Counted from the stretch's first letter, positions 32,212 through 62,682 are shown. The stretch is 64,000 nucleotides of DNA from Sulfolobales archaeon (GCA_038867615.1 JAWBYA010000001.1:64001-128000), one strand, 5' to 3'. Notes: a model not told the origin generated them from the letters alone. Numbers and translations are program-made.

Positions 32212-32464
32212 GCCGTAACCAGCTGTTTTTGATTTGGTGATGGTTTATAGAGGGTTGATGTTAAACCTATAGTGTTGTGGGAACATAGTATAAGTTCTAT
32301 TATTTTACGGTTGAGCCGGGATGTGGGGGTTTCCCCACAGCAATGAGTCAGAGGAACTCGATGAAGGGGAGCTGTGGGTTGGGGTTTCTCTGGATTGGTG
32401 GGGGCCGAGGGAGACGAGGAAGAGCTGTTGGTATAAAAATCAACTGCTATTAAGCCAGAACCCC
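32212..32464 (+). mobile_element. Non-autonomous TnpB-element relic, family 1 copy A
   Basis: Left end GCCGTAACCAGCTG; TATAAG at 32289; hairpin TGTGGGG-gttt-CCCCACA at 32322-32339; MWGFPHSNE...ELWVGV frame; right end AAGCCAGAACCCC shared with copies B-D. Confidence 0.75.
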
Positions 32465-32482
32465 CACGATCCCGTTGGATAT

Positions 32483-33496
32483 TTACATATAGTTAACGAA
32501 GGAAGACATTGCAACCATATCGAGCAGATACTCAGCTATATCTGTTATATAGTCATAGATTCTCGTTATATGGTAGGCTGATATGTCTCTGGTAAGTCCT
32601 AGGCCATAGATCTTCTCGTGGATCGTCTCCTTGCTCTCTATGAGATTCACGAGGGAGGGCATAAGCGTCTCTAGCCTTTCTCCCTTGCCGTTCTGCCTTC
32701 TATCGGGATCCTGGATACCGGTTCTGAGTATCTCATCCAATAGCACGTAGTATTTATACATATCTTTTAGCACGAGGTAGATCTTAACCTTATCGCCATC
32801 ATCAACATTACTTCCAAGTCTAGCTATAGCTACTAGGTGATCCGAGATCCTCTCTATGAGTCTCACTACTTGAACCATAACATATGATCTCTGTAGATAC
32901 TTAGGATCTCTATCGATCTCCGGGTTGCTGAGCATAATATTAAAGATCCTCTCGGCTTCCCTCCTAATAGCGTCGATCTCGTTATCGAGATCCTCGAGCT
33001 CTTCAGCAAAGCCATTCTGCTCCGAGTATGATGATATGGTCAGCTCGAAGAGTGATCTCGCGTTGTTCATCACCCTCCTCACAATAGTTTCAAGACCAGA
33101 GCCCCTCCTCACCTCTCTTAATACTGTGAAATTCCTACCCTCGTCGAATATGCTGAAGCCCGGCATGAGCTTCAAAATAGACATGATCTGTCTCTTGGTA
33201 TCTCGGGAAAGAGGCTTCTTTGATGTGAGCTTTATCTGCTCAGCACCTGACACATAGAGGGCTATTAACAAATGCTTTAGCGAGATCGGGTCATAGTTAT
33301 CCATATCTATATCGGAGTATGTCTTGAGACGTGGAGCGTGGGAGGGCTCTATTATAAGCTTAGACCCAACCCTCCTGATCAGAACCCTTGAGCCCTTCTC
33401 AATCCCGTGGGCTTTGCACCACTCCTTTGGTAGGTATAGAACATATGAGCCCCTAATCTCCTGGATCCTTCTCTCCTCCTCGTGAGAGACGCTCAT
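32483..33496 (-). CDS. AbrB/SpoVT-PhoU phosphate-uptake regulator family protein
   Basis: RRIQ..GSYVLYLPKEW AbrB domain; LIERISDH and RIYDYITDIAE PhoU repeats. Confidence 0.88.
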   Translation of the reverse strand: MSVSHEEERRIQEIRGSYVLYLPKEWCKAHGIEKGSRVLIRRVGSKLIIEPSHAPRLKTYSDIDMDNYDPISLKHLLIALYVSGAEQIKLTSKKPLSRDTKRQIMSILKLMPGFSIFDEGRNFTVLREVRRGSGLETIVRRVMNNARSLFELTISSYSEQNGFAEELEDLDNEIDAIRREAERIFNIMLSNPEIDRDPKYLQRSYVMVQVVRLIERISDHLVAIARLGSNVDDGDKVKIYLVLKDMYKYYVLLDEILRTGIQDPDRRQNGKGERLETLMPSLVNLIESKETIHEKIYGLGLTRDISAYHITRIYDYITDIAEYLLDMVAMSSFVNYM

Positions 33497-33599
33497 AATC
33501 CCTATATTATTAATCCTTCAGAGGTATTATTATATATCATATGTTTACATATGTACTAATCTGGTTGAGGCGATATATAGCTCCGAAGGGTATCTAGAT

Positions 33600-33653
33600 T
33601 GATGATGAGGCTCGAAAGGGCCGTAGTGATGCGGAGCCCGCGCAGGTCTGAAA
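33600..33653 (+). ncRNA. C/D box guide sRNA with two guides complementary to tRNAs
   Basis: Box C ATGATGA 33602-33608, D' CCGT 33621-33624, C' GTGATGC 33626-33632, box D CTGA 33648-33651; TATA-like ATATATAG at 33573. Confidence 0.8.
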
Positions 33654-33771
33654 AGGATCCTTGTTATTGGTTAACCCTAGACTAAGTCTGACGATCCATG
33701 GACTAATCAGTCGCAGGGTTATCCCTATAGCAACGAGCTTAAATCCTCTCAGTGTTTAGATAGGGTGAAAG

Positions 33772-34296
33772 GTGTGTATAAAGATGCCCCAAGACCTGCT
33801 AGGCTTCCTAAAACTATCTTTGAGAAATCTCGAAGACGGTATCGAGAAGGCAGGCTCCTCGGCAAGGGTTTCAGAGCTATCGGTTATAGGGTCGATTAAA
33901 GAGGTGATAAGCTATAGTGAGAAGGTTATTGAGAAAGGACTCTGTCTCTCAAGCTCCAGGGGGATTAAGGGCTTTGGGTATATATGTGACGGTAGGTGGA
34001 GCATTGTTAGCACAGATAATGTCACCTCGATATCGAAGGTTGGGAGCGATATAGCTATATCCTTCAAGAATGGAGAGCTGGGGATATTGAGGGAGGAGGG
34101 TGGCTTGGTGCTTGGACCAAGCTATGTTAGGATTCTGCTGAAGGGATACTCGATAGAGATCCCGTATAACGATTATAGAGAGGCGGGAAGACAGTCACAT
34201 GTTATTAAAAAAGTGCTCCCAATAGTGATAGATACTCTTAGGAAGGCTGATGAGAGCTTTAGCAAGTGTATCAAGCTATATAGGCTTAAATGCTGA
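33772..34296 (+). CDS. Hypothetical protein
   Basis: 174-aa ORF with host-like codon usage. Confidence 0.65.
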   Translation: MCIKMPQDLLGFLKLSLRNLEDGIEKAGSSARVSELSVIGSIKEVISYSEKVIEKGLCLSSSRGIKGFGYICDGRWSIVSTDNVTSISKVGSDIAISFKNGELGILREEGGLVLGPSYVRILLKGYSIEIPYNDYREAGRQSHVIKKVLPIVIDTLRKADESFSKCIKLYRLKC

Positions 34297-34381
34297 CCAT
34301 CTCTTGGGATATCTAAACCCGTATTACCGGCTAAAGGGATATTATTTCTCAAAGCCATGTTGATTCTAGAGGGGGAGGGCT

Positions 34382-35152
34382 CTGGAGATATATCCAGGAT
34401 TAGAGCTAGTTGTAGACACGCCTTTCGCTTATCTGAGGAGGTGGAGAGCTCTTGTTATAGCTGATACCCACCTAGGCTTTGAAGAGGCTATGGGGGAAGC
34501 TGGTTTATATCTACCAAGGGGGCAGCTTAAGCAACTCTTACAGGATCTCGAGACAGCGTTTAGCATGCTTGATATAGGGCTGATAATAATAGCTGGGGAT
34601 CTGAAACACAGATTCGAGAAGCTTGGTGCGCAGGAGAGGAGAGAGATCGAGGAGGTTCTATCTTTTCTGAAGAAAAAGAACTCCGAGGTGATCTTTGTAA
34701 GAGGTAATCATGATAACTATGCATCTATAGTGACATCGAAATACGGTGTAGAGCCAAAACCCTACTATAAGGCTGGATCATTCTTGATAATCCATGGGCA
34801 TCAAGGGTTAGAGAATGTAGTTGGTGAGGATGTTGTAAAAGATACAGAAGTTATTATCTATGGCCATGAGCATCCAAGCATATCGATAAGAGATAGGCTT
34901 GGGAAGATAGCCAAGTTCCCCTGTTTCATAGAGATGCCGTTAAACGTGGGTGATAAGGTAATAAAAGGGCTTATAATGCCAGCCTCAGGGAGCTATCAGG
35001 CAGGCTCTCCAGTAACCACGATCAGGGGTAACTATCTATCACCAATAACCAGGGCTTATGGCGATATAGAGAACGCCAAGCCATATATCCTAGCCAGGGG
35101 AGACGGGATCTTTGAGCTCCCGGCACTAGGCTATATACAGGATCTCATCTAA
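34382..35152 (+). CDS. Calcineurin-like metallophosphoesterase (Lhr-associated MPE type); probable CTG start
   Basis: IADTHLG (upstream of the track's ATG), AGDLKH, RGNHD, IHGH, GHEHP and IMPA. Confidence 0.88.
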   Translation: MEIYPGLELVVDTPFAYLRRWRALVIADTHLGFEEAMGEAGLYLPRGQLKQLLQDLETAFSMLDIGLIIIAGDLKHRFEKLGAQERREIEEVLSFLKKKNSEVIFVRGNHDNYASIVTSKYGVEPKPYYKAGSFLIIHGHQGLENVVGEDVVKDTEVIIYGHEHPSISIRDRLGKIAKFPCFIEMPLNVGDKVIKGLIMPASGSYQAGSPVTTIRGNYLSPITRAYGDIENAKPYILARGDGIFELPALGYIQDLI

Positions 35153-35205
35153 CCAAGCTATACCAAGTATCTCTCAATTATATATTAATCTGTACCGAGC
35201 CAGTA

Positions 35206-35883
35206 TTGGGGCTTACATTGACCAGTCATTATGAATCATGGGATATCCTAGTAGAAGATATATTATCATGCACAAAATGCAGACTCCATATGTCTAGGAG
35301 AAAAGCCGTACCTGGCGATGGTAGGAGAGATGCTGAGATCATGCTTATAGGAGAGGCGCCCGGGGCTACAGAGGACGAGCTGGGACTACCCTTCGTGGGG
35401 GCTGCTGGCAAGCTTCTCGATAGTGTTTTGGAGGATATAGGTTTAAAGAGAAGCGATCTATATATAACAAACGTGGTTAAGTGTAGGCCGCCTAACAATA
35501 GGCAACCGGCTAGGGATGAGATAGAGTCATGCTCCCTCTATCTAGAATCACAGATCCTCATGATACGCCCGAAAGTGATAGTGACCCTAGGAAGCGTTGC
35601 TGGGGAATGGGTTGCATCAAAGATGGGGATTAGATGGCTTGGTGTAACCAGGATGAGGGGTAATATATATAGGGGTGATATGTTGGGGATAGAGATCTCG
35701 TTGATCCCTACTTATCATCCCGCAGCGATCCTCAGGAATAAGGGGAATATGGAGGATCTTAAGGCAGATCTAAGGATAGCTGTAGAGGAGCTGGCTAGGA
35801 TAAAGGGTTCTAAAAGATCTTCAGAAGAGAAGGAAGAGAGAAAGGGAGGAAAAAAGACTCTTCTAGACTATATGAAGCTATGA
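35206..35883 (+). CDS. udg: Family 4 uracil-DNA glycosylase with a C-terminal PIP-like box
   Basis: CTKCRL, IGEAPG, PFVGAAG, NVVKCRPPNNR, TYHPAA and a terminal KKTLLDYM. Confidence 0.95.
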   Translation: MGLTLTSHYESWDILVEDILSCTKCRLHMSRRKAVPGDGRRDAEIMLIGEAPGATEDELGLPFVGAAGKLLDSVLEDIGLKRSDLYITNVVKCRPPNNRQPARDEIESCSLYLESQILMIRPKVIVTLGSVAGEWVASKMGIRWLGVTRMRGNIYRGDMLGIEISLIPTYHPAAILRNKGNMEDLKADLRIAVEELARIKGSKRSSEEKEERKGGKKTLLDYMKL

Positions 35884-35951
35884 GTATTGCTGGAATATCG
35901 TTTTAGCTAATAAGCATCTCTAGTAATCTATGATTTTGGTGAGGCTCATCC

Positions 35952-36275
35952 TTGAGTAGGGAGAGGGAAGAGGTTGAGGAGGAGATTGAAGAGCTAGAGG
36001 AGGGTGTGGAAGAGACTACTACTGAGGAGGTTGAGGCTGAGGTTGAGGCTTCAGATCTCCTCCTAGGGTTGGATCAAATTAACACAATGATCCATGTAAC
36101 AGAGATCTGGGATTCGGTGGTCTCTGGCAGGATAGATGTTGAGGATGCAAAAAAGCTTCTAAACAGGATCTCCACACCTGTAAAAGGTGTTGAAGAAGAA
36201 GAGGAAGAGGTTGAGGAGGAGGCTAAGAAGGCTAAGGTGCAGAAGAAGACATCTAAGAAGAAGTCAAAGGGCTAG
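35952..36275 (+). CDS. rpo13: RNA polymerase subunit Rpo13
   Basis: Acidic N-terminus, core TEIWDSVVSGRIDVEDAKKLL (compare Sulfolobus TEIWDNLLNGKISVDEAKRLF) and a basic tail. Confidence 0.85.
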   Translation: MSREREEVEEEIEELEEGVEETTTEEVEAEVEASDLLLGLDQINTMIHVTEIWDSVVSGRIDVEDAKKLLNRISTPVKGVEEEEEEVEEEAKKAKVQKKTSKKKSKG

Positions 36276-36383
36276 TGTTATTGATACCTCCTACAGGATC
36301 TCATATGGATTTTATCACTATACCTCTATGCCTAGATATAATGATAGAGCAGCACGTCTCTATGGCTAACGAGGATCGAGATC

Positions 36384-39239: not shown

Positions 39240-39243
39240 AAAC

Positions 39244-40320
39244 CTAGATCCAGGTGAGGTTTTCTAGGAACCTTAGCCTCTTGGGGATCGGTGGGTGTGT
39301 TGCTAGGATCTCTTCGATCGGCGAGTACTCAGATCTCATGATCCTCTCTATATCAGCCCTCGATACTCTGTAGAAGGGCTCTGCAACAGCATCTGTTAAG
39401 GCGTATATGAATAGGGCTCTCATCTTGCTATCCTTAACGCTCTGGTGGATATCCTCGTTCCTGCGGTAGAATATATGTATCTTAGCAAGGGCTGCCTGCA
39501 TGGCGCTCCTACCAGCTGCTCTAGCTCCCTCTAGGTCTGCATAGTATTCTCTAAGTCTGCTGAAGGTTAGGATCAGGATCTGGAGGACAAAGGATACTAT
39601 GACAGCAGCTATCCCTACTGCGGCTATTATGGCGTTTCCAGAGCCGTTTCTCCTTCCACTATTGCCTCCCCATAGTGCTAGGTGCACAAGGCTTACTCCT
39701 AGGTAGTATATAACCGAGGGGAGTATTCCGAGGAAGAGCATTATAGCGTTATCCCTATGCTTGTGATGCCCTATCTCATGCCCTATAACGGCCTCAAGCT
39801 CGTTCTGATCCACAAGCTCCATCATACCGTCGGTAACAGCAACATACTTTCCAGTCACTATGTTTCCATATGCAAATGCGTTGGGCGGACCTCTTACCCT
39901 CACAGCCTTGGGAGGCTTTACACCAAGCCTCTGGGCAACCCTATTAACTATCTCCTGAAGCCTCTGGTCCGGTGTGGCTCCGTAGAATAGGTTTATCATG
40001 AAGGGGGATATTAGGTATGTTATCAGGTTAGCTATTATGACGAAAGCCATTATAGGGACTATAAAGCCCCACACAACCGATGGATCGGTGAGATTTATTG
40101 GAACACCCTGCCACAGCTGGATAGCATATATTATCGCTGCTAGGGTTGCTGAGAAGACGAATATTATCAGGACGAGTGTTAGAGCCATTGAGCTGTATAG
40201 CGATAGAGTTCCTGAGAGTTTCCCAGCAACCTTTGGCGCTATGGTGGCAGCTAGAAGAAACATCACTACATATCCAAGCACTGTTAATACTAATGCTATT
40301 GGGCTAAAGAACAGGAACAT
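39244..40320 (-). CDS. htpX: Zinc metalloprotease HtpX (M48)
   Basis: PNAFAYG, AVIGHEIGH, SRLREYYAD and THPPIPKR. Confidence 0.93.
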   Translation of the reverse strand: MFLFFSPIALVLTVLGYVVMFLLAATIAPKVAGKLSGTLSLYSSMALTLVLIIFVFSATLAAIIYAIQLWQGVPINLTDPSVVWGFIVPIMAFVIIANLITYLISPFMINLFYGATPDQRLQEIVNRVAQRLGVKPPKAVRVRGPPNAFAYGNIVTGKYVAVTDGMMELVDQNELEAVIGHEIGHHKHRDNAIMLFLGILPSVIYYLGVSLVHLALWGGNSGRRNGSGNAIIAAVGIAAVIVSFVLQILILTFSRLREYYADLEGARAAGRSAMQAALAKIHIFYRRNEDIHQSVKDSKMRALFIYALTDAVAEPFYRVSRADIERIMRSEYSPIEEILATHPPIPKRLRFLENLTWI

Positions 40321-40470
40321 TCCGACTACCCAATGATAGTAGATAGTGTAGAAGCTAATAAGGGTTCGCATATGGAGATCTATGATCCCTATCCTGATGC
40401 ACTAAACATGTGGAGTCATTTTTAAATGATATGAACCTTTCCTCACAATACCATATAGATCCTTGGTGGT

Positions 40471-40821
40471 TGCCATAGCCAGCTGTTTCAGGTTTCATGA
40501 TGGTTTATAGGGGTTGATATTAAACTCGAGGTTCTGCAGTAATGTAACCTTATATAAGCTCTTATATTTCACTGGGATGCCGCCCAACAATGAGGGTGGG
40601 GATAGAGATCCGAGTGGGCGGGTTAAATAAAAAGCCCAGGATGTGGGGGTTTCCCCACAGCAATGAGCCAGAGCAAAGCTATGAAGGGGAGCTGTGGATC
40701 GGGGTCACCTCGAACGGGTGGAGGCCAAGGATATGGGCCCCAATGATAGAGGCCCTGAGGCCCATGAAACCAAGGGAAGAACGGTTGGTATAAAAATCAA
40801 CTGCTATTAAGCCAGAACCCC
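40471..40821 (+). mobile_element. Non-autonomous TnpB-element relic, family 1 copy B (longest)
   Basis: Left end TGCCATAGCCAGCTG; TTATATAAG at 40550; extra hairpin CCGCCCA/TGGGCGG; frame MWGFPHSNEPE..ELWIGVT..GWRP.IWAPM..ALRPMKP; right end AAGCCAGAACCCC. Confidence 0.78.
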
Positions 40822-41018
40822 TAAGCAGTACTCTAAACCATCTAGACAAGATCCTGTGATTAGAGTTCCGCGTGGTTAGGCTGAGATCTATCCGTGATCC
40901 GCAAATAAGGAGATCTATGCGTATTGCCTGAAGAATCCCTGTATTCGCTGGTTCTCTGATATTATTGATCGGAAGCTAGCAGAAAGCTAAAAAGCCTTAG
41001 AAGATTATAGAGATATGG

Positions 41019-41094
41019 GCCGGGGTAGCTCAGCTGGTAGAGCGCCGGGCTGTTAACCCGGTGGTCGGAGGTTCGAATCCTCCCCCCGGCGCCA
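41019..41094 (+). tRNA. tRNA-Asn(GTT), CCA encoded
   Basis: GCCGGGGTAGCTCAGCTGGTAGAGCGCCGGGCTGTTAACCCGGTGGTCGGAGGTTCGAATCCTCCCCCCGGCGCCA folds as a cloverleaf. Confidence 0.97.
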
Positions 41095-41651
41095 ATGCCG
41101 TAACGGGTTGCCTTAGTTTTAATTAAAGTTCTATAGTGATTGGCACCATATTATTAGAGCCCTTATCTATAGCCTCTTTCCAATATTGCCTGTTTTACTG
41201 CTATGAGGTAACCTCTGTACCATGACTCCCTTTTCAACCCTCTACCCGTTTTTCTATCTCCGTTCACATCACAGACAAATATTCCTTAGGTTGTGGCTTA
41301 TCTATAAAACATAAGAGGATCTAATAGAAGAACTGAGCTCTAGAGTCCATGAAGCCAAGAAAATAGCGGCTGGATCCGTGCAGTAACAACAATGAAACCT
41401 GAATTCCTTATCTGACCCCTGTGATTCGTAAAAGCCGGGTTTAGATTAATAATTAATCAAAATCACAGGATTAGGAGGTTATGGGATCCTTAACCACAGC
41501 TTCCAGCGTAATAAGTCCTAATAAATGTGTAAAGAAAATCGTTATAGAGATATTCATAGAAACTGTTTTTCTTAATGTTGCTTCGAGAAAACGTAAAATA
41601 TATTAGTTTATATACGGAGTATTCTCGCCAAGCCGAACCGGGTGGGGAATA

Positions 41652-43598
41652 ATGCCCGGATCTATTAAGGGATCTGTAGATGAAAACCCTATCCAACCAT
41701 ATTCAAGGGAAGCCAGCAATTCCTCAGGAGGAATCTCTTTATCCATACGGGCTGGGCGGGGGTCTCTGTATACCAGGGAAAGACGAAGAAGATCAATAAA
41801 TATCAAGGGGCGAGCAGTTAGCTTGAGGGCGTCTGCTCTCCTAGCTTCTATCCTTGTTATCATCACATTCTTCGCCCCAGTGCAAGTGTTCATAGGCGAA
41901 GCCGATGCCCAGCTACCGCAAAACGTTAGGTCAGAGCTTACTAGTTATTTGCAAAAACTCTCTAAAGGATGGGATCAAGAGGCTGTCGAGGGTGCTAACC
42001 GGATATTGAGTAATACGAGCTATACTTCGAAGGCGTGGGAGAACTTCTTTACAGAGTATTTTAGCTCTAACCCGTTTACGGATCATCTTAAGTTCTATCT
42101 CAGCTACGCGGTTTTCTCGTGGTTTAGTGAAGATGTTCGTCTCAACCTTCAAAAGGGCCTTATAAACCCGATGTTAACAAACATAAAGCATATTATGGAG
42201 AACTATAGTAAGAATTTGAGCGATACTCTATCCAGCAACCCCGCAATTCTTCAGACACTCTTCAATTCCCACGGGTTTATCAACGATTATACGAAGCTCG
42301 GCGTAGTGGGGGATGAGGCTAACTACAAAATATATTCTTTCTATATCAAGCTAGTGAGAGACTATCCCCATCTGCTGAGGAAAGAGATCACCTTCAACCC
42401 AAACACACAGCCATATCTCGCAACAATAAGGGCTCAAGTGTGGATGAACCTTAGAGACGCTATACCCCTAAACCAAAGCGTAAAGCAAGAAATAGCCGAA
42501 ACAATAGGTCTTGATGGCATTTATCTCGATATATGGCGTGAGTTCTCAATACTGGTGATAGATAACAATGGCTTCGATAAAAGGCAGTTAGAGGTTATAC
42601 AAGACGTTTTGAGCAAGATCCCGAAAGATCTACATATGCTTGGTAGCATCACATGCAATGAGCTGTTGGGCAATACGAATGAGCGTTTTCTATGGTTTTC
42701 TACAAAGCTGAGTGTGAATCTATTCAACGTAAAAGTCGGTTCATATATTGAAAACCAGTTTCCAAATGATATAGAGCCGGGGTACTCTGACCTCTTCACA
42801 ATGGTTCTTATCCATGAGGTTAACCACGCGGTTGATGCATATCTATACCCACGCTTTAAATGGTTCTCCACACCGGATCCGAGTTATAAACCCCGTCTAG
42901 ATGGTTTGATAGCAAGGGCTGGGAACAATAGCATGAATTATCTCAGAAGCATGTTCGAAAGCGGCTTTTTTGTGAAATACCCGCAGGAGTTCTTTGCATC
43001 GATATCAAACCAGTATTTCAGCAACAGCTCCCACACACTAAAGCTCGCTTTAAGCAGATTTGATAAGGGGTATAAAGAGCCAATCAATCAATTCCTATTC
43101 TTCGCAAATGTCTACTCCCAAGGAGGGAACACCACGCTCTTCTACACCACCGATACCAATGGTAACGTGTATAGGAGAGAGGTGCCGATCTTTAGGGATT
43201 GGAATGGAAATATAGTCGCGATAGCCGATGGCAAGAATATGTATAGATTCACATTGGATCGGGATGGTAATGTTATCTCCTACTCCATCACCGAAGCACC
43301 TCTAATGAATGTCAGCTTCGACATCGAACCCAGGGTTGGCGAGCTTATAATTGATAATATAAAATACAGCGCGGATGAGATGCCCGTATCTTTCAAATGG
43401 GGTTTGGGCTCTGTGCACTCAATCGAAGCCCCAAAGATTATCGAGATAGGACCAGGGCTCCGCCTCGTCTTTGACGGATGGAGTGATGGGGTTACTTCAG
43501 CTAAAAGAACAATAATGGTATTATCCCCAGCTATGTTGGTTGCAAAATATAGAGTAGAACATCTTAGAGAACCTATATATATGCCGTTTGGTTCTTAG
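41652..43598 (+). CDS. Putative exported HEXXH zinc metallopeptidase with a C-terminal beta-repeat domain (true start probably downstream of 41652)
   Basis: Hydrophobic signal-like segment ALLASILVIITFFAP, LIHEVNHAVD, a downstream PQEFFAS and a C-terminal VFDGWSDG. Confidence 0.7.
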   Translation: MPGSIKGSVDENPIQPYSREASNSSGGISLSIRAGRGSLYTRERRRRSINIKGRAVSLRASALLASILVIITFFAPVQVFIGEADAQLPQNVRSELTSYLQKLSKGWDQEAVEGANRILSNTSYTSKAWENFFTEYFSSNPFTDHLKFYLSYAVFSWFSEDVRLNLQKGLINPMLTNIKHIMENYSKNLSDTLSSNPAILQTLFNSHGFINDYTKLGVVGDEANYKIYSFYIKLVRDYPHLLRKEITFNPNTQPYLATIRAQVWMNLRDAIPLNQSVKQEIAETIGLDGIYLDIWREFSILVIDNNGFDKRQLEVIQDVLSKIPKDLHMLGSITCNELLGNTNERFLWFSTKLSVNLFNVKVGSYIENQFPNDIEPGYSDLFTMVLIHEVNHAVDAYLYPRFKWFSTPDPSYKPRLDGLIARAGNNSMNYLRSMFESGFFVKYPQEFFASISNQYFSNSSHTLKLALSRFDKGYKEPINQFLFFANVYSQGGNTTLFYTTDTNGNVYRREVPIFRDWNGNIVAIADGKNMYRFTLDRDGNVISYSITEAPLMNVSFDIEPRVGELIIDNIKYSADEMPVSFKWGLGSVHSIEAPKIIEIGPGLRLVFDGWSDGVTSAKRTIMVLSPAMLVAKYRVEHLREPIYMPFGS

Positions 43599-43660
43599 AT
43601 ATTAATTTTATTTCTCTTTGTTTTCTTCCATATCTAGCGACTTTAACACTCACCTTTAGT

Positions 43661-43842
43661 GTGGGGATAGAGGCCTGAGTGGATGGGCCGGAGCTGCTAT
43701 GAGGGGCTATGGGTTGGGGTTTCTCTGGATGTGTGGGGGCTGAGTATATGGGCTCCAGTGATGGGGGCTTTGAGGTCTGTGAAGCCGGGGGAACAGTTGA
43801 TATCAAAAAAAAAAAATACCTCCGCTATGAAACCCGAACCCC
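43661..43842 (+). mobile_element. Non-autonomous TnpB-element relic, family 1 copy C (right part only)
   Basis: Shares GTGGGGATAGAG..C.GAGTGG with copy B; LWVGVSL..IWAPV.GALR.VKP frame; right end AAACCCGAACCCC; 12-A run at 43805-43816. Confidence 0.7.
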
Positions 43843-45336
43843 ATATACGGATCTGTATATTTTATAGCTTGGAGCAAGGGTCTTTGGATGGTTTGCTCTA
43901 ACCATGTCAAGCCTGGACACTGAGGTGTTGCTCGGTGTTTTCTTGACCTCCTCGGGATTTCTATAAGCCTTCTCCGCGATCTTGTTGAGGATCTCTGCGT
44001 ATGCCTCTATAACCTCTCTAGGCTCTGTCTCTGTGAACTCTACCATTAGGGCTTCGCTAACTATGAGTGGGAAGTATATTGTTGGGGCGTGGAGCCCTTC
44101 GTTAAGCAACGCCTTAGCTATATCCTCTGTCGTCACACCAGTCTCTCTCGCTATCTTGCTAGCGCTTATAACAACCTCGTGTTTCCTGGGCTTCTCGGGC
44201 GCATAGGGTAACTCGTAATATGGCTTCTCAAGGATCTTCTTTATAAAGTAGTTTGTATTCAATACAGAGATCTCGGAGACCTCCCTCAACCCTTGGGGAC
44301 CTAGCATCGCTATATATGCGAATGTCCTCACAACAGGCGCTATATTTCCATAGAAGGCTCTAACAGCTCCTATGCATTTCTTACAATCATAATCCCAGTA
44401 GTACTTATCACCTTTTCTCTCTACCAAGGGTCTTGGGAGGTAGTCTACAAGCTCTCCCCTAGCGCATACAACACCTCCTCCAGGACCCCCACCCCCATGG
44501 GGTGTTGCGAATGTCTTGTGCAGGTTGAGGTGAACTATATCGAAGCCCATATCCCCCGGCCTTGCAATCCCCATTATCCCGTTGAGGTTAGCCCCATCAT
44601 AGTATAGAAGCCCTCCAGCACCATGGACTATATCAGAGATCTCGAGTATCCTGCTCTCAAAGATTCCGAGGGTGTTTGGGTTGGTGAGCATAATCCCAGC
44701 GGTTCTCGGACCCACAGAAGCTTTTAACGCTTCTATAGAGACCTCTCCATCAGGGCCTGTGGGGATTCTAACAACCTTGAAGCCTGCCATCGCAGCGCTG
44801 GCAGGGTTGCTTCCATGGGCAGAGTCTGGTATGAGCATCTCATCCCTCTCCTCACCCCTATCGAGGTGGTATTTCCTAATCATAAGGGCTCCTGCAAACT
44901 CGCCAGCAGCCCCTGCTGGGGGTTGGAAGCTACATCTATCCATACCGGTGATCTCGGCTAACCATCTCTCGGTTAGATATATTATTTCCAGGATACCCTG
45001 AACAGTATCGATATCCTGTAGGGGGTGGAGCTCGACAACTCTTGGATCCATGGCTATGAGATCTAACACCTTAGGATTATACTTCATGGTGCACGAGCCG
45101 AGAGGAACCGGCCCTAGATCTACTCCATATGACATCTGGGATAACCTGGTGTAGTGTCTAACAACCTCGATCTCGGAGAGCGTTGGTATTGAGGGCTCGT
45201 CTTTTCTCAACAGGTTCTCGGGGATCTTTATCTCGATCTCGCTAAACTGATCCTCGTAGGGGATGAGGGGTCCTGCAGAAGATCTCCTTCCACGTTCTAG
45301 CAAGAGATCCTCGTCCCACCTAGCCTGTCTCCACAT
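43825..45336 (-). CDS. gcvPB: Glycine dehydrogenase (decarboxylating) subunit 2
   Basis: PLGSCTMKYNP, SAHGSNPAS, TNPNTLG and HLNLHKTFATPHGGGGPG. Confidence 0.96.
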   Translation of the reverse strand: MWRQARWDEDLLLERGRRSSAGPLIPYEDQFSEIEIKIPENLLRKDEPSIPTLSEIEVVRHYTRLSQMSYGVDLGPVPLGSCTMKYNPKVLDLIAMDPRVVELHPLQDIDTVQGILEIIYLTERWLAEITGMDRCSFQPPAGAAGEFAGALMIRKYHLDRGEERDEMLIPDSAHGSNPASAAMAGFKVVRIPTGPDGEVSIEALKASVGPRTAGIMLTNPNTLGIFESRILEISDIVHGAGGLLYYDGANLNGIMGIARPGDMGFDIVHLNLHKTFATPHGGGGPGGGVVCARGELVDYLPRPLVERKGDKYYWDYDCKKCIGAVRAFYGNIAPVVRTFAYIAMLGPQGLREVSEISVLNTNYFIKKILEKPYYELPYAPEKPRKHEVVISASKIARETGVTTEDIAKALLNEGLHAPTIYFPLIVSEALMVEFTETEPREVIEAYAEILNKIAEKAYRNPEEVKKTPSNTSVSRLDMVRANHPKTLAPSYKIYRSVYGVRVS

Positions 45337-51796: not shown

Positions 51797-51950
51797 TTTT
51801 ACCCGGTTTCCCTCCTTTTCCATTTTTATTAAAAACATAACATGGAATTTAAGCTTAACTCTGCCTTTTGTGCCTTAACCATGAGAAGGCTGGGAAATAC
51901 CGGGCTGGCTTGAAAGAATATAAGCTCTCTCGCTACTGTGTTGGTGGGCT

Positions 51951-52637
51951 TTGGAGCAAGGCTTCGTCATAGTGGTTGATCACCCACTCGCAAGGGCTAT
52001 TCTCACATCCCTCAGGGATAGAAGAACCGACCAGATAGGCTTTAGGAAGGGTCTTGTAAGGCTTGGAAGGATAATTGGTATGGAGATGACTAAGCACCTA
52101 GATATCGAGAAAATCTATGTAGAGACGCCCTTGGGGGTTATGGCTGAAGGGGTTAGGATACCTGATATGGAGCATGTCGTCATAATAAATATCCTCAGGG
52201 CTGCGATGCCCATGGTTGAGGGGCTTATAAAGATATTCCCCAGCGCTAGGCAAGGGATCATTAGTGCTAGGAGGGTTGAGGAGAAGGGTATGGGTGCTAA
52301 CTACTCCTTCGATGTTGAGATACATTACATGAAGATCCCCAAGATCTATGAGAGGGACACGCTGATAATGGTCGACCCAATGTTTGCCACAGGCTCTACA
52401 ATGATCTCTGTACTCAACAGGATCCTTAACATGGGTGCAATGCCGAAGAGAATATTCTTCACAACAGCTATATCGACCATGGTAGCTATTGATAGGCTGA
52501 GGAGCTTCTTGCTGGATAGAAAGCTTATAGAGAAGGCTAGGCTATTCACAGTAGCAATAGATCCCGAGATTAACGATAAAGGATACATAGTACCCGGGCT
52601 GGGTGATGCTGGAGACAGGGCCTTTGGATATGGCTAG
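51951..52637 (+). CDS. upp: Uracil phosphoribosyltransferase
   Basis: ILRAA, MVDPMFATGST and YIVPGLGDAGDR. Confidence 0.96.
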   Translation: MEQGFVIVVDHPLARAILTSLRDRRTDQIGFRKGLVRLGRIIGMEMTKHLDIEKIYVETPLGVMAEGVRIPDMEHVVIINILRAAMPMVEGLIKIFPSARQGIISARRVEEKGMGANYSFDVEIHYMKIPKIYERDTLIMVDPMFATGSTMISVLNRILNMGAMPKRIFFTTAISTMVAIDRLRSFLLDRKLIEKARLFTVAIDPEINDKGYIVPGLGDAGDRAFGYG

Positions 52638-52709
52638 AGTTGCTAACATACTTAGAACGAATAAGAGCCTCCTAAACCTATAGTTAGTGATCCATCCGGG
52701 GTATTCTGC

Positions 52710-53960: not shown

Positions 53961-54000
53961 TGATGAAAACCAACCGTGTAGCATATTATAGCCCATTAAC

Positions 54001-54474
54001 ATGTACAGTGGTGATCCCATGCAGTGCGTCGAAGAAGGCTCTCTAGCTCCTGACTTCGAGCTGGCAGACCAGGATGGAAAGATCTTCAGGCTATCAAGCA
54101 TGAGGGGGAAGTATGTGGTACTGTACTTCTACCCCAAAGCAATGACAAGAGGGTGCACCATAGAGGCTCTTGAGTTTAGAGACTCCTACCAGAAGATCTT
54201 ATCGCTAGGGGCTGTTGTAGTTGGTGTCTCCAAAGATAGTATTGATAGTATAAAGGAGTTCTCCCAGAAATATGGATTACCATTCACACTACTATCGGAT
54301 CCAGAGGGGGTGGTTATCAAGCGATACTGCGTCCAGGGACCCTTTGGCCTTGCAAGAAGGGTTACTTTTCTAATCGATGATAAGGGCATTGTTAGGAAGA
54401 AATGGAGTAAGGTAAACCCCCTTGGACACGCGTTGGAAGTTATAAAGGAGATCGAGGCTCTCAGGGGAAGCTAG
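54001..54474 (+). CDS. bcp: Peroxiredoxin (BCP type)
   Basis: APDFEL, VLYFYPKAMTRGCTIEA and RVTFLID. Confidence 0.92.
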   Translation: MYSGDPMQCVEEGSLAPDFELADQDGKIFRLSSMRGKYVVLYFYPKAMTRGCTIEALEFRDSYQKILSLGAVVVGVSKDSIDSIKEFSQKYGLPFTLLSDPEGVVIKRYCVQGPFGLARRVTFLIDDKGIVRKKWSKVNPLGHALEVIKEIEALRGS

Positions 54475-54705
54475 ATGCCTAGGTGCTCTGTCTGCGGTAA
54501 GGTTTTCCCCGAGGGGCAGGGGATCTATGTTAAAGTCCGCAACAAAGAGATCTTTTTCCACAAAAAGACATGTGCAACCAAGTTCCTGAGAGAGTTACTA
54601 CCCCTCCTTGGGCAGGAGTGCATGGGGGCTGTTGAAAGCGTGCTTGATAGCTTCTCAAAGGCTATAGAGGAGAAGAAGAGGGAGAAGAGGCTCCCCGGAA
54701 CATAG
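54475..54705 (+). CDS. Small TRASH/L24e-like metal-binding protein
   Basis: CSVCGKVFPEGQG...FHKKTC. Confidence 0.65.
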   Translation: MPRCSVCGKVFPEGQGIYVKVRNKEIFFHKKTCATKFLRELLPLLGQECMGAVESVLDSFSKAIEEKKREKRLPGT

Positions 54706-54752
54706 GATCTCTGTGTTAAAATCTTTTAAACCTCTTTATCTAAATTATTTAA

Positions 54753-57653: not shown

Positions 57654-57689
57654 ACTGATCAGTGTTAAGAAGAAGGGTTTGTTTTAGAA

Positions 57690-60600
57690 TTACTCTACAT
57701 ATATTCCAGGTCTTAGTGGCATTGCCTCTTTCTTCTTCCCCCTATAGTCAGGTGCGCTGGGATCCCATGATCCGTATACCTCGATCGCGGAAGCCCCTGT
57801 AGCTTCTCTCAAAGTCTCTAGACTGCTTCTTATAACATCTATCTCATTTATAACAGCCCCCTCAAGGATCATTGAGGCGAGATCTTCCGATAGCGATGAC
57901 GCGTGGTCAAAGATCCTCTTTATCCTTAGAGCCTCCTCATCACGTGATCCCAGGCCTAGCTTGCCTAGATAGGCCTCCATAACAGGTCTAATCCCCTCAC
58001 CCTTTCTCTGAGCCTCAAGGCTCTTTCTAAGGATCTCTATTTCGCTCTGCGGCGCTGTATAGATCACTACTCTCGAGGGTTTCTTTCTCAATATCGATAT
58101 GATCTCCGTGAGATCCTCGCTAAGGGATCTTAGATATATGTGCTTCAGCTCCAGATCTCTATCTATATATCTCCTCAGATCCTCCCTATCGAAGCTCTCC
58201 CTAACCACAAGGCTTTTCTCACCTAACACGCTGTGCCATATCTCCTCAGCAGCGTGTGGCGCGTATATAGATAGCATGATCACCCACGCCCTAACAATCC
58301 CCAAGATCTCTTTCCACGCACCATCACTCCTTCTAATATACTCTGCAAGGGTGTTTGCAACATCATATATAATCCCGATCCCTGCTTCCCTAACCCTTAG
58401 CTTCTCTAGAGCATCGTCGGCTCTCAAAATACTCCTGACGATCCTTGAGGCATAGACCTTATCAAGCTCGCTCGGATCCTCTCTCACAGGCATCTTCACA
58501 AGCCTTTCTAGAAGCTCATATATTCTTCTAATATTCTCAGCAATGTTTACAGCTGCTTCATGTCTAAAATCTAGATCCTGGCCTTCTTCGGATAATGTTG
58601 AGAGCGCTATTCTAACACTATCGCTTCCATATAGATCTACAGCTCTAGATACTGGCAATATGTTCCTCAGACTCTTTGACATCTTCCTACCCTCTCTAAG
58701 AACCCAGCCGTGGATCAGCATTGCTCTAGGCCATAGGTCTCTTGGGAACACGGCTACGTGGTTCATTATGAAGAATAGCAGGTGATTGTTAGCTAGATCC
58801 TTTCCAGCGACTCTGAGGTCTAAGGGGTACCAGTATAGAAAATCATTCCTCAGATCCTCGAGATCCTCTCTCCTAATCCCGAGACTTCTAGCGATACTCC
58901 CAGGATCTCCTTTGCCTAGCATCACATAGTCCCAGAAACTCTTACCAAGCATAGAGGGATCTTTAACAATCTCTCTGAGCTTGTGGGAGATCGTATAGAA
59001 AGCCATGTAGATCGTTGAGTCGCTCAGGCTCTCAATAACCCACTCAGTATCCCAGGGAAGAGGCGTCCCAAGCCCTCTAGTCCTCGCACAAGGCTTCTCC
59101 CTAAGGTTACCTATAAGGCTAGCCATATATTCTCTCATCTCGGGGGGCTGTATATACATGCTCCTAAGTAGCTCGAGACCCTCGGCCTTCCACCCCTGGT
59201 TAGAGTAGTCTATGAACCACTGGTTCTCAAGCATTTTAACAACAATCTCTGTCCCACATCTACAATACACGGGCTTATTGGTGATCTCATATAGAGAATC
59301 CCCTACTCCCGAGAGCTTTATAAATGTAGATATGTTCTCCCTAGCCTCAGGGATCCTTTTACCCTCGACCCAGCCCTTTATAAACCCAGCCAAGAAGCCC
59401 TGATCATGCCTATCGCTCTTCACAAGCCTTGATAGGTCTCTCTCCATAGAGCCGAGGTTATACTCCAGCGAGTATAGCTCCTTAGTAGCTTTTTCCAGCG
59501 CCTCCCTATCAAGCTGATCTTTAACCCTGTGCTTCTCAACGAAATGCTTTGCAGGGATGCCCTTGATCCCTGGTACTCGTATCACGACCCGAGGTTCGTG
59601 GGGCTTTATACCCTCAGCGTTTTTCACGATCTCGGTGTATGCCTGGTAATCGTCTGGCGAGTGGGCGGGGACGCTCATAACAACCCCCGTACCTGTCTCA
59701 GGATCCACGAACCTTGCTGGAAGTATGGGGATCTTCTCGCCTGTTATCGGGTTTATAGCTGTTTTTAGGAGGAGCTCTTCTGGGGATATACTCCTTATAT
59801 ATTTAACCCCTCTTTTCTGGTATAGCAGCTTCTCATAAGATCTCTTAGAGATAATCCATGTCGAGCCCTCCACCTCGGCTTCGACATAATCAGCGCCGGG
59901 GTTGATCCAGATGTTTGTCACGCCAAACACTGTCTCTGGTCTGAGAGTCGCTGCTGGTAATACCCTGCCGTTCTCGTCTCTGAAGAATATTAGTGTGAAT
60001 TCACCTATCTCGGGATCCTTGTCATCCTTGGTATCATGCCCCCCAACGGGCATTCCGTGTCTCGGGCACCAGCCAACAGGATACGTCCCCCTGGTGACAA
60101 AGCCCTTTTCTCTGAGAAGCTCGAACTGCCATCTTATAAAGCTGCTGAAATAAGGATCTATTGTTGTGAACTCCCTCCTCCAATCTATACCTAGACCCAG
60201 CCTCTTCATGCTATCCCTAGAGATTCTGTGGAAGTACTGGGCAAGGTCTATTGGTTTTGAAAGCTTTAGAGCGATCTCTCGAGGAACGTTATATATATTA
60301 ACGAAGAGATCTATGAGCTCTGTATCGCCCGCCTCTATAGATTCAGCCATAGTCAGTATAGGCGTCCCCGTATAGTGGAAACCCATTGGGTAGAGGACAT
60401 ACTCACCCCTAGTCCTCCTATGCCTAGCAATAATGTCTGCTAGAACATAGCTCCTAGCATTACCTATATGTATAGGTGAGTTAGGATATGGAAACGCTGC
60501 TGTTACAAAGAATTTACGCCTATCCCTAGCATCAACACGCTCAACCCTATAGGCGCCTTCAGCCTCCCATATACTCTGCCACTTGGAGGAGATGCTTTTC

Positions 60601-60707
60601 AGCCACTCTATAGGATCCGGACTCTCGGAGAATAGAGCTCCCCTTCCTAATAACCCCTGGGGATATATAAGCATTATATTGATATATTGTTCATCCCTAA
60701 ATACCAA
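57690..60707 (-). CDS. leuS: Leucine--tRNA ligase (exact start uncertain)
   Basis: AFPYPNSPIHIGN, ATLRPET, GTGVVMSVPAHSPDD editing domain, ESLSDSTIYMA and KMSKS. Confidence 0.96.
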   Translation of the reverse strand: MVFRDEQYINIMLIYPQGLLGRGALFSESPDPIEWLKSISSKWQSIWEAEGAYRVERVDARDRRKFFVTAAFPYPNSPIHIGNARSYVLADIIARHRRTRGEYVLYPMGFHYTGTPILTMAESIEAGDTELIDLFVNIYNVPREIALKLSKPIDLAQYFHRISRDSMKRLGLGIDWRREFTTIDPYFSSFIRWQFELLREKGFVTRGTYPVGWCPRHGMPVGGHDTKDDKDPEIGEFTLIFFRDENGRVLPAATLRPETVFGVTNIWINPGADYVEAEVEGSTWIISKRSYEKLLYQKRGVKYIRSISPEELLLKTAINPITGEKIPILPARFVDPETGTGVVMSVPAHSPDDYQAYTEIVKNAEGIKPHEPRVVIRVPGIKGIPAKHFVEKHRVKDQLDREALEKATKELYSLEYNLGSMERDLSRLVKSDRHDQGFLAGFIKGWVEGKRIPEARENISTFIKLSGVGDSLYEITNKPVYCRCGTEIVVKMLENQWFIDYSNQGWKAEGLELLRSMYIQPPEMREYMASLIGNLREKPCARTRGLGTPLPWDTEWVIESLSDSTIYMAFYTISHKLREIVKDPSMLGKSFWDYVMLGKGDPGSIARSLGIRREDLEDLRNDFLYWYPLDLRVAGKDLANNHLLFFIMNHVAVFPRDLWPRAMLIHGWVLREGRKMSKSLRNILPVSRAVDLYGSDSVRIALSTLSEEGQDLDFRHEAAVNIAENIRRIYELLERLVKMPVREDPSELDKVYASRIVRSILRADDALEKLRVREAGIGIIYDVANTLAEYIRRSDGAWKEILGIVRAWVIMLSIYAPHAAEEIWHSVLGEKSLVVRESFDREDLRRYIDRDLELKHIYLRSLSEDLTEIISILRKKPSRVVIYTAPQSEIEILRKSLEAQRKGEGIRPVMEAYLGKLGLGSRDEEALRIKRIFDHASSLSEDLASMILEGAVINEIDVIRSSLETLREATGASAIEVYGSWDPSAPDYRGKKKEAMPLRPGIYVE

Positions 60708-60843
60708 ATGTTAATCCATGTTCTTTTATTATCAAAGAGTATCGCTATATAATACATCCTAATCTATATCTTACTGAACCGTGATGATGGTTTGTTGGTG
60801 AAATAGTTTAATAACCCCGTCTGGAAGATATAGAGGAACCCTT

Positions 60844-61206
60844 ATGAGGACTCCAAAGCCTCTTGACAAGATCCTCTGGGATCTATGCAGAGATACTAGG
60901 GAGGATGTGGAAGAGATCGTAGGGCGGGTTGAGAAGCTGAGGAGCAGGGTTACAGAGGATCTCAGTCTTACAAACCACCCCTTTGTGCTAATGCGTCTCA
61001 GGGAGTTCCAAAAGGAGTTTGAAAAAATGGTTAAAAATGATCTAGAGAAATATCTAAACCCAAGCAAGGATGGCTATATATGTTCAAAAGATGTGAGAAA
61101 ATCCCTGGAGTTCTTGGAATCAAAACTGATAATGTTGGAGAAGAAGCTAGGATTAGTAAGAGAAGCCATGGAGAAGAATGATGAGCAGTCTTGGAAGAAG
61201 ATCTAA
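60844..61206 (+). CDS. Hypothetical coiled-coil protein
   Basis: 120-aa helical, charged ORF. Confidence 0.55.
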   Translation: MRTPKPLDKILWDLCRDTREDVEEIVGRVEKLRSRVTEDLSLTNHPFVLMRLREFQKEFEKMVKNDLEKYLNPSKDGYICSKDVRKSLEFLESKLIMLEKKLGLVREAMEKNDEQSWKKI

Positions 61207-61377
61207 CATAATAATCTCATGATCCCTCATAACCGAGTCTCTATAGATCTGCAAACCCGGATCGTTATCCTAGCTGAAGCCCTGTTGTCAAAGGAACAGT
61301 GGTTTGCCATAAGCCTATAAAGATCTTGCAGTATAATCCTCAGCTTCTCGAGCATTGAAAACTATTAAGTTATTAAG

Positions 61378-61463
61378 TCCCCCCGAGGGGATTTGAACCC
61401 CTGACCACCCGGTTTCCGCCCGCCCCACTACAGCCGGGCGCTCTGCCACTGAGCTACGGGGGG
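61378..61463 (-). tRNA. tRNA-Tyr(GTA) with a 14-nt intron at 37/38 (61414-61427); CCA not encoded
   Basis: CCCCCCGTAGCTCAGTGGCAGAGCGCCCGGCTGTAG[TGGGGCGGGCGGAA]ACCGGGTGGTCAGGGGTTCAAATCCCCTCGGGGGGA; C1-G72 pair and relaxed BHB motif. Confidence 0.95.
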
Positions 61464-61616
61464 TTCCTATATTTATTAAATCAGTGCTCTTATTTATTCT
61501 TTACCCAAGGATCGTGCGTCTGGGCAGTGGTTTTCCATAGAGCTGGTATTCCAACAATGATCTGTTTAAGGATATATTACCTGTCACAGATCCCTATTAT
61601 TAGGGCTAGTAGGTTA

Positions 61617-62474
61617 TTGAGGTTCTGTGCTAAGTGCGGTCGTGATGAGAGATCCGTGCCTATAATTAGGCATCTATGCATTGACTGTTATCTAGAGCTT
61701 AGGGGGAGAGAGCTCTTTCCCAGAAGTATTACTCTAACATACTGCCCATCATGTGGGAGCTATAGGGTTAGTGGTGATTGGATTAGCAGCGAGGATATGG
61801 GTAATGACGAGAGGGTTGTTATGGCATATATCATTGAGAGCGGTTTAAAGATCCCTGAGGAGATAGCCAATGCCGATCTAGAGGATCTAAGGGTCGTTAG
61901 AACAGACTACGGAGAGGCTATAGATGCGAGCGTGAGGATCAGCATAGGAGGCTCTCAATACAGGATCACAAAGAGAGTGGGGCTCAATAGAGAGAGAACC
62001 CTATGCCCAGCCTGCCATAAAATCCGCGGTAAGGGTTATGAAGCAATTATACAAATAAGAGGACTTCCTTTTATTAACGAGCGCCTCTTAAGAGTCGTCG
62101 AAGAGAATCTATATAAACTCCCAGAGGCTCTCAGAAACTCTATAGCCGAGATAGAGCACCTGAGAGAAGGCATAAATCTTAAGCTTGTCTCCAGACATGC
62201 TGCCCAAAGCATAGCGAGTATCCTTAGGAAAGAACTCGGCGGAAGAATAATAGAAACAGAGGAAGGCGGGACGGGAAGAAGCATGAGGACGGGTAAGAAG
62301 CCAAGGCTAGTGATAAGTATCAGGATACCAAGCATTGAAGAAGGATCCTATATAAGGATCAACGGTCAGCCATATATAGTTGAGAGAGTCGATGAAGAGA
62401 GAATAACCCTGATCAATAGGGAAGGGAAAAAAGTCACTATGACCAAAAGCGACATAGTAAAAAGCTGGGAGTAA
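61617..62474 (+). CDS. NMD3-family ribosome biogenesis protein
   Basis: FCAKCG..LCIDC, YCPSCG, LCPAC and YEAIIQIRG. Confidence 0.88.
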   Translation: MRFCAKCGRDERSVPIIRHLCIDCYLELRGRELFPRSITLTYCPSCGSYRVSGDWISSEDMGNDERVVMAYIIESGLKIPEEIANADLEDLRVVRTDYGEAIDASVRISIGGSQYRITKRVGLNRERTLCPACHKIRGKGYEAIIQIRGLPFINERLLRVVEENLYKLPEALRNSIAEIEHLREGINLKLVSRHAAQSIASILRKELGGRIIETEEGGTGRSMRTGKKPRLVISIRIPSIEEGSYIRINGQPYIVERVDEERITLINREGKKVTMTKSDIVKSWE

Positions 62475-62476
62475 AT

Positions 62477-62682
62477 CGCTGTAGCCGGCTGTTTCGGAAT
62501 TCATGGCGGTTTTAGGAGTTGATATTAAACCCGAGTTCTGCAGTAATGGAACATAGTATAAGCTCTATGTAGTTTACAGTAGATCCGGGATGTGGGGGTT
62601 TCCCCACAGCATTGAGCTAAGGCCTATGAAGCCATGGGAAGAATGGTTGGTATAAAATCAGCTGCAATGAAGCCAGAACCCC
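62477..62682 (+). mobile_element. Non-autonomous TnpB-element relic, family 1 copy D (shortest with both ends)
   Basis: Left end CGCTGTAGCCGGCTG; TATAAG at 62557; TGTGGGG-gttt-CCCCACA hairpin at 62591-62608; right end AAGCCAGAACCCC. Confidence 0.75.

Follow-up and report, generated by a model that had tools for sequence, protein, structure and literature searches.

The 64,000-nt stretch analysed here (the window) is C1:64001-128000 of a 2.22-Mb, 28-contig Sulfolobales assembly (94.4% complete; genome G000), which was compared with five other genomes of the same genus (G001-G005), G002 and G003 serving as sister genomes for site comparison. Four copies of a dispersed repeat, A to D, lie in this window. 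In all likelihood these repeats are protein-less, non-autonomous mini-transposons that have been cut down from a TnpB-carrying insertion sequence of the IS607 type and have kept its guide-RNA region. The repeats derive from an element still found in the genome, their boundaries can be read from empty sites, they have moved recently, their right end is conserved and structured, and one intact cognate TnpB is present. Selfish elements of this kind have been described before, and the family is no new host system. Below, bare numbers are window positions and numbers prefixed C1, C5 and so on are contig positions.

The repeats are remnants of a tnpB element

When the sequence was read and the copies aligned, all four were found where a preliminary description of this DNA had placed them, with starts at 40472 for B and 62478 for D and with C at about 43661-43842. 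A, B and D have in common a start reading GC(C/T)(G/A)TA(A/G)CC(A/G)GCTG, a TATA box and a perfect TGTGGGGG-TTT-CCCCACA hairpin, which begins ~30 nt past the TATA box in A and D; C is a right-end fragment alone. All four terminate in GAACCCC, beyond which their sequences are unrelated. B is the full form, A is missing one block and D two. These features agree with the preliminary description. Its proposed left end is likewise a genuine common sequence of A, B and D, but the leading 3 nt (GCC; GCT in D) are target DNA and not element, because the empty sites of sister genomes retain them.

The parent was located through the TnpB zinc ribbon (PF07282), which has five matches in the genome. At two of these, the right half of the repeat lies directly past the ribbon (C1:12511-12701, 87% identical to B, and C1:51554-51744), and left ends lie upstream of both tnpB copies (C1:11134, match C1:11134-11182, and C1:50094). 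The genome-wide check for a full-length parent, which the preliminary description had proposed, therefore returns one intact and one broken copy with the same ends. The intact parent lies outside the window at C1:11134-12700 (1567 bp), its tnpB occupying C1:11373-12743 as an open 460-aa frame, and the second tnpB copy is broken into frames of 251 and 165 aa. The TATA block of the repeats (consensus AACATTATATAAG; AACCTTATATAAG in B) matches the parent ~30 nt ahead of the tnpB ATG and is the best-conserved 15-nt stretch of 16 copies (0.96); what had been proposed as the element promoter is the tnpB promoter. On a family profile built from 16 full-length copies (segment cut-off E<=1e-3), positions ~106-160 map onto zinc-ribbon coding sequence. 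A full copy is built of ~60 nt of left end, the promoter of tnpB, a short zinc-ribbon coding piece and the rightmost 190 nt of the element; all of these parts match C1:11134-12700, which establishes the proposed descent from a tnpB element.

The parent TnpB has a methionine at its fourth residue, WDSNE and HxLEDL motifs, and ELDRQK past a CxxC...CxxC ribbon. It matches PF07282 at E 8e-14 and has the zinc ribbon and RuvC residues of an IS607 TnpB; its matches to solved TnpB and Cas12f structures are weak. In an alignment with 11 relatives (55-89% identity), D210 and E290 are invariant. The third acidic RuvC residue (D in ELDRQK) is D in the parent TnpB and N in three of the 12 aligned proteins, so that some members of this TnpB family may be nuclease-dead. 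The MWGFPHSNE..ELWVGV frame, earlier likened to TnpB tails, is the conserved C-terminal tail of the parent TnpB in this alignment.

A third tnpB (C6:24883-25286, locus L005; 462-aa frame), a sister element with a right end of its own, has a similar tail (ISCDISHYETQTP) and is followed by a weak match to the repeat right half (E 1.3e-8).

The features of the window are as follows (position, strand, description):

32212-32214, +: target motif GCC at the left end of A, containing the CC core also found at the right end; the empty allele of G003 keeps TTGAATGC(T)
32215-32464, +: copy A, deletion variant (profile 1-102 + 165-350), with TATA at ~32290-32297, hairpin at 32324-32341 and a GAACCCC end; absent at the orthologous G003 site
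40472-40474, +: target motif GCC of B; the G003 empty site has GTC
40475-40821, +: copy B, mini-transposon of full length (profile 1-350); G003 lacks it and has the two flanks joined
40550-40557, +: TATA box TTATATAA within B, derived from the parental tnpB promoter (parent and consensus AACATTATATAAG, B AACCTTATATAAG)
40632-40821, +: right half of B, predicted omega-RNA scaffold; 87% identity to C1:12511-12701, directly past the TnpB zinc ribbon; covarying helices in 27 tnpB-linked homologues
40822-40837, +: flank, the would-be guide of a B-derived omega-RNA, judged by its position; ordinary DNA at the G003 empty site
43661-43842, +: copy C, 5'-truncated right-end fragment (profile match 193-350 from 43684), the most diverged of the four
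62478-62480, +: target motif of D, GCT, by reading of the sequence
62481-62682, +: copy D, double deletion (profile match 2-92 + 158-198 + 284-350), without the covarying middle helices
41100-41407, +: possible fifth copy, badly decayed, directly past a tRNA gene and preceded by GCC; a weak, by-eye reading (right-end part, profile 274-349, 12.7 bits; left end -3.5 bits)
27847-27852, -: empty target site GAGAGCC/AGGG, where G003 has a full copy (locus L027) whose flanks join at C1:91847-91852

The parent is probably of the IS607 type

This TnpB family is common among Thermoprotei of hot springs: when one genome was scanned for each species, 49 tnpB loci came out, from Desulfurococcaceae, Ignisphaera, Acidilobus, Thermogladius and other groups. 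In ~30 of the 49, the repeat profile matches the right half at the tnpB end, always reaching profile position 349-350, and in related loci the left end lies 280-650 nt upstream of tnpB. In the longer related elements (1950-1970 bp), the space ahead of tnpB is occupied by a 200-aa open reading frame (ORF) with an HTH_17/MerR domain followed by a Resolvase catalytic domain. By tblastn, at least 18 of the 49 loci have this ORF (>=190 aa aligned) immediately upstream of tnpB, and several more have pieces of it. A serine recombinase with a MerR-type helix-turn-helix (HTH), placed upstream of tnpB between the same ends, makes this the IS607 layout.

The preliminary description had implied a parent of the IS200/IS605 type, and our own initial identification was a tnpB-only IS200/IS605 element; both were given up for want of a Y1 gene and in view of the serine recombinase in related elements. 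A corresponding palindrome-associated transposable element (PATE), moved by a Y1 (HUH) transposase via single-stranded DNA, would account for the absence of inverted repeats and of duplication, for the subterminal hairpin at the right end and for insertion 3' of a short motif, and one genus member, G004, does have a Y1 gene. This origin is nevertheless very improbable: a search for Y1 transposase (PF01797) finds none in this genome, G001, G002 or G003, three of 21 relatives have one but none beside these ends, the serine recombinase lies between the same left end and tnpB in the at least 18 full-length related elements counted above, and the same CC occurs at both junctions.

The one resolvase of this genome (C23:6616-7053) was considered as cognate transposase and rejected; by reading, its 203-aa sequence has no N-terminal HTH.

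Copies have moved recently, without target duplication

A and B are missing at the orthologous G003 sites (flanks ~93-96% identical), and copies present in G003 or G002 are missing in this genome, one such empty site lying in the window at ~27847-27852. When further sites were sought by comparing 20-kb segments with G003 and G002, the count of element sites filled in one genome but vacant in a sister genome came to 17, A, B and the intact tnpB element included; the latter is a polymorphic insertion itself. The family has therefore moved recently. Clean occupied sites read flank-GCC-[GTAGCC...GAACCCC]-flank and the corresponding empty sites flank-GCC-like-flank, with no duplication; C1:8967, the intact and the broken tnpB element (C1:11134-12700 and C1:50094) and loci L060 and L061 are examples. 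Target-site duplication was absent at 17/17 element sites, several joints having 1-4 unmatched nt.

A logo of 70 left-end flanks gave G in 63, C in 62 and C in 59, with A at -2 in 37/70 and A or T at -1 in 55/70; exact GCC precedes 51 of 71 left-end matches and ACC three. The right-end consensus also finishes in CC, so the structure can be written flank-G-CC-[GTAGCC..GAACC]-CC-flank. Among empty sites, about half have CC and the rest a one-letter variant. The same CC at both junctions is what would be predicted if a serine transposase makes its exchange over a 2-nt core.

The spacer upstream of a tRNA gene (window 40400-41100) is an insertion hot spot: B lies here, G003 has no copy, and G002 (locus L009) has a different, oppositely oriented copy within a few nt of the position of B.

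A family of 103 loci with recurring deletion forms

With B as query, blastn against its own genome returned 100 segments; the profile search returned 131, which merge into 103 loci, 74 with a left end, 74 with a right end, 53 with both and 26 of full length (~350 bp). The repeats are far beyond chance. The preliminary description had seen different internal deletions in each copy: deletions do differ, but they belong in part to common subfamilies with recurring forms. One form (1-197+284-350) has six copies, and D carries the same second deletion; another (1-171/176+251-350) has ~4, and the A-type form (about 1-100+160-350) has ~10. Since the break points of the recurring forms are identical, these are subfamilies that multiplied after deletion.

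[quoted passage not shown] Its left and right ends are unrelated, that is, it has no terminal inverted repeats, and a PATE-like label therefore suits it better than MITE.

A second repeat family, ~340 bp long, is represented in the window at 10097-10440 (C1:74097-74440) and at more than 20 further places in the genome. Its copies adjoin another tnpB type (C2:203163-203352, C1:782-977), often past GCC, and it is probably a mini-transposon of that other tnpB element.

The right half covaries across related tnpB elements

The right half of the cassette comprises the final 190 nt of the tnpB frame, as far as GAACCCC, and, by position alone, occupies the place of an omega-RNA (the TnpB guide RNA, which lies at the 3' end of tnpB and runs up to the element boundary), as had been proposed. 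We examined 27 right halves (25 from related loci, the parent and B) under a 34-pair model against 500 column shuffles. In these, 90.1% of cells pair (82.4% in shuffles), 66 cells show a double change (19.3 in shuffles) and 14 pairs contain one (8.4 in shuffles), and none of the 500 shuffles reached any of the three values. Sliding the partners by 1-3 columns left 5-15 double-change cells. Helix 132-139/151-158 covaries at five of its seven pairs and reads, by genus, GCCCC/GGGGC, ATCCC/GGGAT, GCACC/GGTGC, GCTCC/GGAGC or CGGGC/GCCCG; the terminal hairpin switches between GCGG..CCGC and GGGC..GCCC. The test for compensatory changes suggested in the preliminary description thus favours a multi-helix right half, but not the TGTGGGG/CCCCACA hairpin which it had singled out: one pair of that hairpin is broken in 17 of the 27 sequences and a double change occurs in one of its seven pairs, and an alternative partner exists, CCCACAGC with downstream GCTGTGGG. 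Taken together, position and covariation support the right half as a putative omega-RNA scaffold.

Guide-RNA source or inert debris

The mechanism that we propose begins with internal deletion of an IS607-family element (serine-recombinase TnpA plus the RNA-guided nuclease TnpB), which gave rise to the mini-transposons. Their retained promoter would drive transcription through the scaffold into the flank, so that the guide of the resulting RNA would be the neighbouring DNA. The single intact TnpB (C1:11373-12743) could take up these RNAs in trans and cut the same site where it stands empty, and recombination would then restore the element, as in the published homing model. The beneficiary of this retention would be the element, not the host.

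Several observations weigh against this proposal. Scaffold-deleted variants exist, lacking profile 198-283 (6 copies) or 172-250 (~4), the segments where the covarying helices lie; D and its like cannot act as guides, yet they spread, and since they multiplied, the scaffold is not required for spread. The covariation reflects a selected fold of one strand, and RNA cannot be separated here from single-stranded or cruciform DNA: the middle helices have 21 G-U and 12 A-C, the terminal hairpin 11 and 24. Among the copies themselves (41 sequences from this genome and from G003 and G002, including three tnpB-linked ones; same 34-pair model), pairing is 91.8% of cells against 90.9% in shuffles (0/500 reach) and 12 pairs show a double change against 5.7 (1/500 reach), but double-change cells number 14 against 11.3 (212/500 reach) and the covariation score is 0.136 against 0.129 (49/500 reach). 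Paired columns diverge from the copy consensus in 10.1% of cells and unpaired ones in 13.0%. With so little excess covariation, selection on the copies themselves is not shown; judging from these alignments, they look like young copies of a constrained template, their own constraint being at most weak. The right half belongs to no Rfam family, the window giving three tRNAs only at the gathering threshold and a permissive search of the parent locus three chance-level matches, and a single-sequence fold of the right half of B is no better than shuffles (z = -1.32). In three metatranscriptome runs, window 40000-41500 received 0, 0 and 7 reads, too few for a verdict either way. For Sulfolobus islandicus, overlapping guide transcripts have been reported for IS605-type and not for tnpB-only (IS1341-type) genes. 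Finally, tblastn for an IS607-type tnpA found just a frameshifted scrap in this assembly (C7:65739-65973, E 0.001), an absence which, at 94.4% completeness, is not proven; all five other genus genomes have a tnpA homologue (69-79% identity in G005, 51% in G003 and G002). With no cognate transposase gene found, the copies may now be immobile.

The same observations bear on a rival explanation, namely that the copies are inert debris, IS607 derivatives that are neither transcribed into usable guides nor loaded by TnpB, and whose scaffold is kept by youth and by a need for the right end in transposition. Debris would be expected to show little or no excess covariation among copies and to multiply without a scaffold, as seen, and near-even coverage along the profile (54-77 of the 103 loci) indicates that the right half is not preferentially kept; the scant metatranscriptome reads and the ~13% divergence of the copy scaffolds from that of the sole intact tnpB also suit it. 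What speaks against debris is that no part of the copies is better conserved than the tnpB promoter block, that paired columns diverge somewhat less than unpaired ones, that an intact cognate TnpB is present and that trans use of an omega-RNA has been reported for another IS607 TnpB (10.1101/2023.11.20.567912). On this balance we regard inert debris as a real but rather unlikely alternative to mini-transposons that still carry a guide-RNA region.

Flanks are insertion-site DNA, not acquired spacers

In 72 flanks past GAACCCC no base is conserved. Searched against their own genome (16 nt, <=2 mismatches), these flanks have about one other match per guide, approximately the reckoned chance level, a figure obtained without a shuffle control; the exceptions are flanks inside another repeat family. 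At empty sites the flanks are present as ordinary DNA and are therefore insertion-site DNA, not acquired spacers.

This bears directly on the view of the preliminary description, in which the copies were a domesticated host guide set, used by TnpB or a nuclease-dead relative against the genome or viruses. Promoter and scaffold are indeed fused in every full copy, and the flank differs from copy to copy. We nevertheless find a purpose-built genome-wide guide set hardly credible, given the chance-level matches of the flanks in a search confined to their own genome, their unchanged presence at empty sites, the multiplication of scaffold-deleted variants and the absence of copies from the same sites in sister genomes, which makes them insertion polymorphisms. 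A dead TldR-like protein as user fares no better, the cognate TnpB having retained its RuvC residues; further unlike TldR, the loci are polymorphic and the flanks have no second target in the genome.

Over the 11 nearest pairs, the guide region at empty sites diverges at 31/220 positions, the 20 nt left of the motif at 28/220 and the background at 380/3520. Guide-region divergence therefore shows no excess. At two sites (C5:97161 against G003, and G002 locus L062 against C5:87302-87320), the first 13-16 flank nt are far more diverged than the rest; in one example of such a diverged would-be guide target, 8/16 positions differ, against ~11%.

Target motifs differ between occupied and empty alleles

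Between occupied and empty alleles of the nearest genome pair, the 3-nt motif differs at 11 of 18 sites and is the same at 7, in a small sample with ambiguous alignment at some joints. Differing motifs are GCT or GCA in four cases, GTC in three (once on the occupied side) and ACC in four. Other GCC/GGC triplets in the same flank alignments differ in 24/99 cases (nearest pairs; Fisher one-sided p = 0.003) and, over all comparisons in one set of flank alignments, in 36/129 (Fisher one-sided p 0.007). We left out of this count A against G002 (unalignable), C1:492334 against G002 (154 unrelated nt), C1:235505 against L267 (a paralogous repeat) and second-genome comparisons where a nearer genome existed. 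Polarized by an outgroup, the change falls twice on the empty allele of G003 (at C1:14437 and at the tnpB element) and once on the occupied allele (C1:8967), and it is common to the occupied and empty alleles once (C1:449143); at the B site, GCC is on the occupied allele alone.

This excess could be a footprint of TnpB homing, empty alleles persisting only with a spoiled transposon-adjacent motif (TAM), like resistance alleles in a gene drive. The site of the intact tnpB element fits this idea, a perfect 16-nt guide match standing behind a mutated GTC at the empty G003 site, and excess motif variation, if real, would be field evidence for the homing model. We hold such a footprint to be improbable all the same. 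Such differences could also come from local mutation, or from a loose choice of target in which the donor circle supplies the left junction. A donor-templated left junction has been reported for another IS607 transposase (10.1101/2023.11.20.567912), and by analogy could be the source of part of the motif differences here; the right-end dinucleotides do not follow the pattern which it predicts.

Relation to described elements

Protein-less omega-RNA elements and the homing model are already in print, and the family joins a known kind. Haloarchaeal PATEs (Haloquadratum walsbyi and others) are described as derivatives of tnpB elements by core deletion (PMC3119063). As described there, they resemble the present repeats in being protein-less, numerous and strain-specific in position, in having no inverted terminal repeats and no target duplication, and, for some, in retaining part of the TnpB C-terminal coding region. 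They are tied in that account to the IS200/IS605 type and carry near-terminal palindromes, whereas here a serine recombinase is found in relatives, the target is GCC with a CC core, and the promoter is kept. For Geobacillus stearothermophilus, gene-less PATE-like elements are reported that 'often encode omega-RNAs' and need TnpB in trans, with a proposed role in element retention by empty-site cutting (10.1101/2023.03.14.532601). Those elements are bacterial and, as reported, Y1-based; the present ones are archaeal, IS607-derived and known from sequence alone.

IS607 itself is reported to insert at GG without duplication, GG being found at the transposon termini (PMC6188088). In the IS607-family CboIStron, as reported, the transposase needs the core dinucleotide, the TAM TGGG contains that core, and an omega-RNA supplied in trans to the IS607 TnpB is as active as in cis (10.1101/2023.11.20.567912). 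The present family is like IS607 and CboIStron, as far as those accounts go, in its HTH-serine TnpA (here in relatives) plus TnpB, in having no inverted repeats and no duplication, in the identical core dinucleotide at both ends and target, and in its predicted right-end omega-RNA (trans-active in CboIStron); a TAM that includes the core would be a further likeness to CboIStron, the putative TAM here being GCC, which holds CC. It differs in that the core is CC on the tnpB strand (GCC) instead of GG, in having no intron, and in that tnpA-less and gene-less derivatives alone are found in the genome. TldRs are described as nuclease-dead TnpB relatives that act as RNA-guided transcription factors (10.1101/2023.11.30.569447). 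The likeness is a TnpB-family protein with a guide RNA encoded at the gene end, predicted here; TldRs are, in that description, domesticated, non-mobile and nuclease-dead, whereas here RuvC residues are kept and the pieces that encode the RNA are repeats, both mobile and polymorphic.

ISC1733 is a member of the IS605/IS1341 group. The Sulfolobus element SMN1 (320 bp), which is said to rely on ISC1733 (PMC3718332), is likened to the present family by its description, being non-autonomous, ~320 bp long, found in a thermophilic crenarchaeon and tied to an insertion sequence with orfB (tnpB).

The result is mainly one of annotation: in this archaeon from a hot spring, ~100 loci with the look of unusual conserved RNAs between genes are mini-transposons from a TnpB element of the IS607 type. 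What survives deletion is plain from the family, namely both ends, the promoter and the guide-RNA region, and the family's covarying right end, present across many Thermoprotei, offers a ready annotation model for a putative omega-RNA class missing from Rfam. With one intact TnpB gene and up to 74 right-end loci that could supply guide RNA, this genome would be a convenient test system for trans-loading and homing in archaea.

Rearrangements and neighbouring sequence

Copies also reshape the genome, through insertions clustered by the tRNA gene and through inversion. A ~10-kb segment of C1:42441-53137 is inverted in G003 and G002 relative to this genome, and is flanked by oppositely oriented copies (C1:42441-42791 and C1:52792-53137); this looks like the outcome of recombination between copies.

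Window 41096-43844 (2.75 kb) begins directly past the tRNA gene (41019-41091) and has C at its right edge. G003 and G002 are without it and carry an unrelated 45 nt in its place. It contains the possible decayed copy at 41100-41407 and a 648-aa ORF (41652-43598) with no Pfam or NCBIfam match.

On contig C7 (69 kb), three copies taken with 600-nt flanks match loci of G003 and G002 at 98.8-100% identity, against ~84-96% for the rest of the genome, which suggests that a mobile or transferred region has recently been shared.

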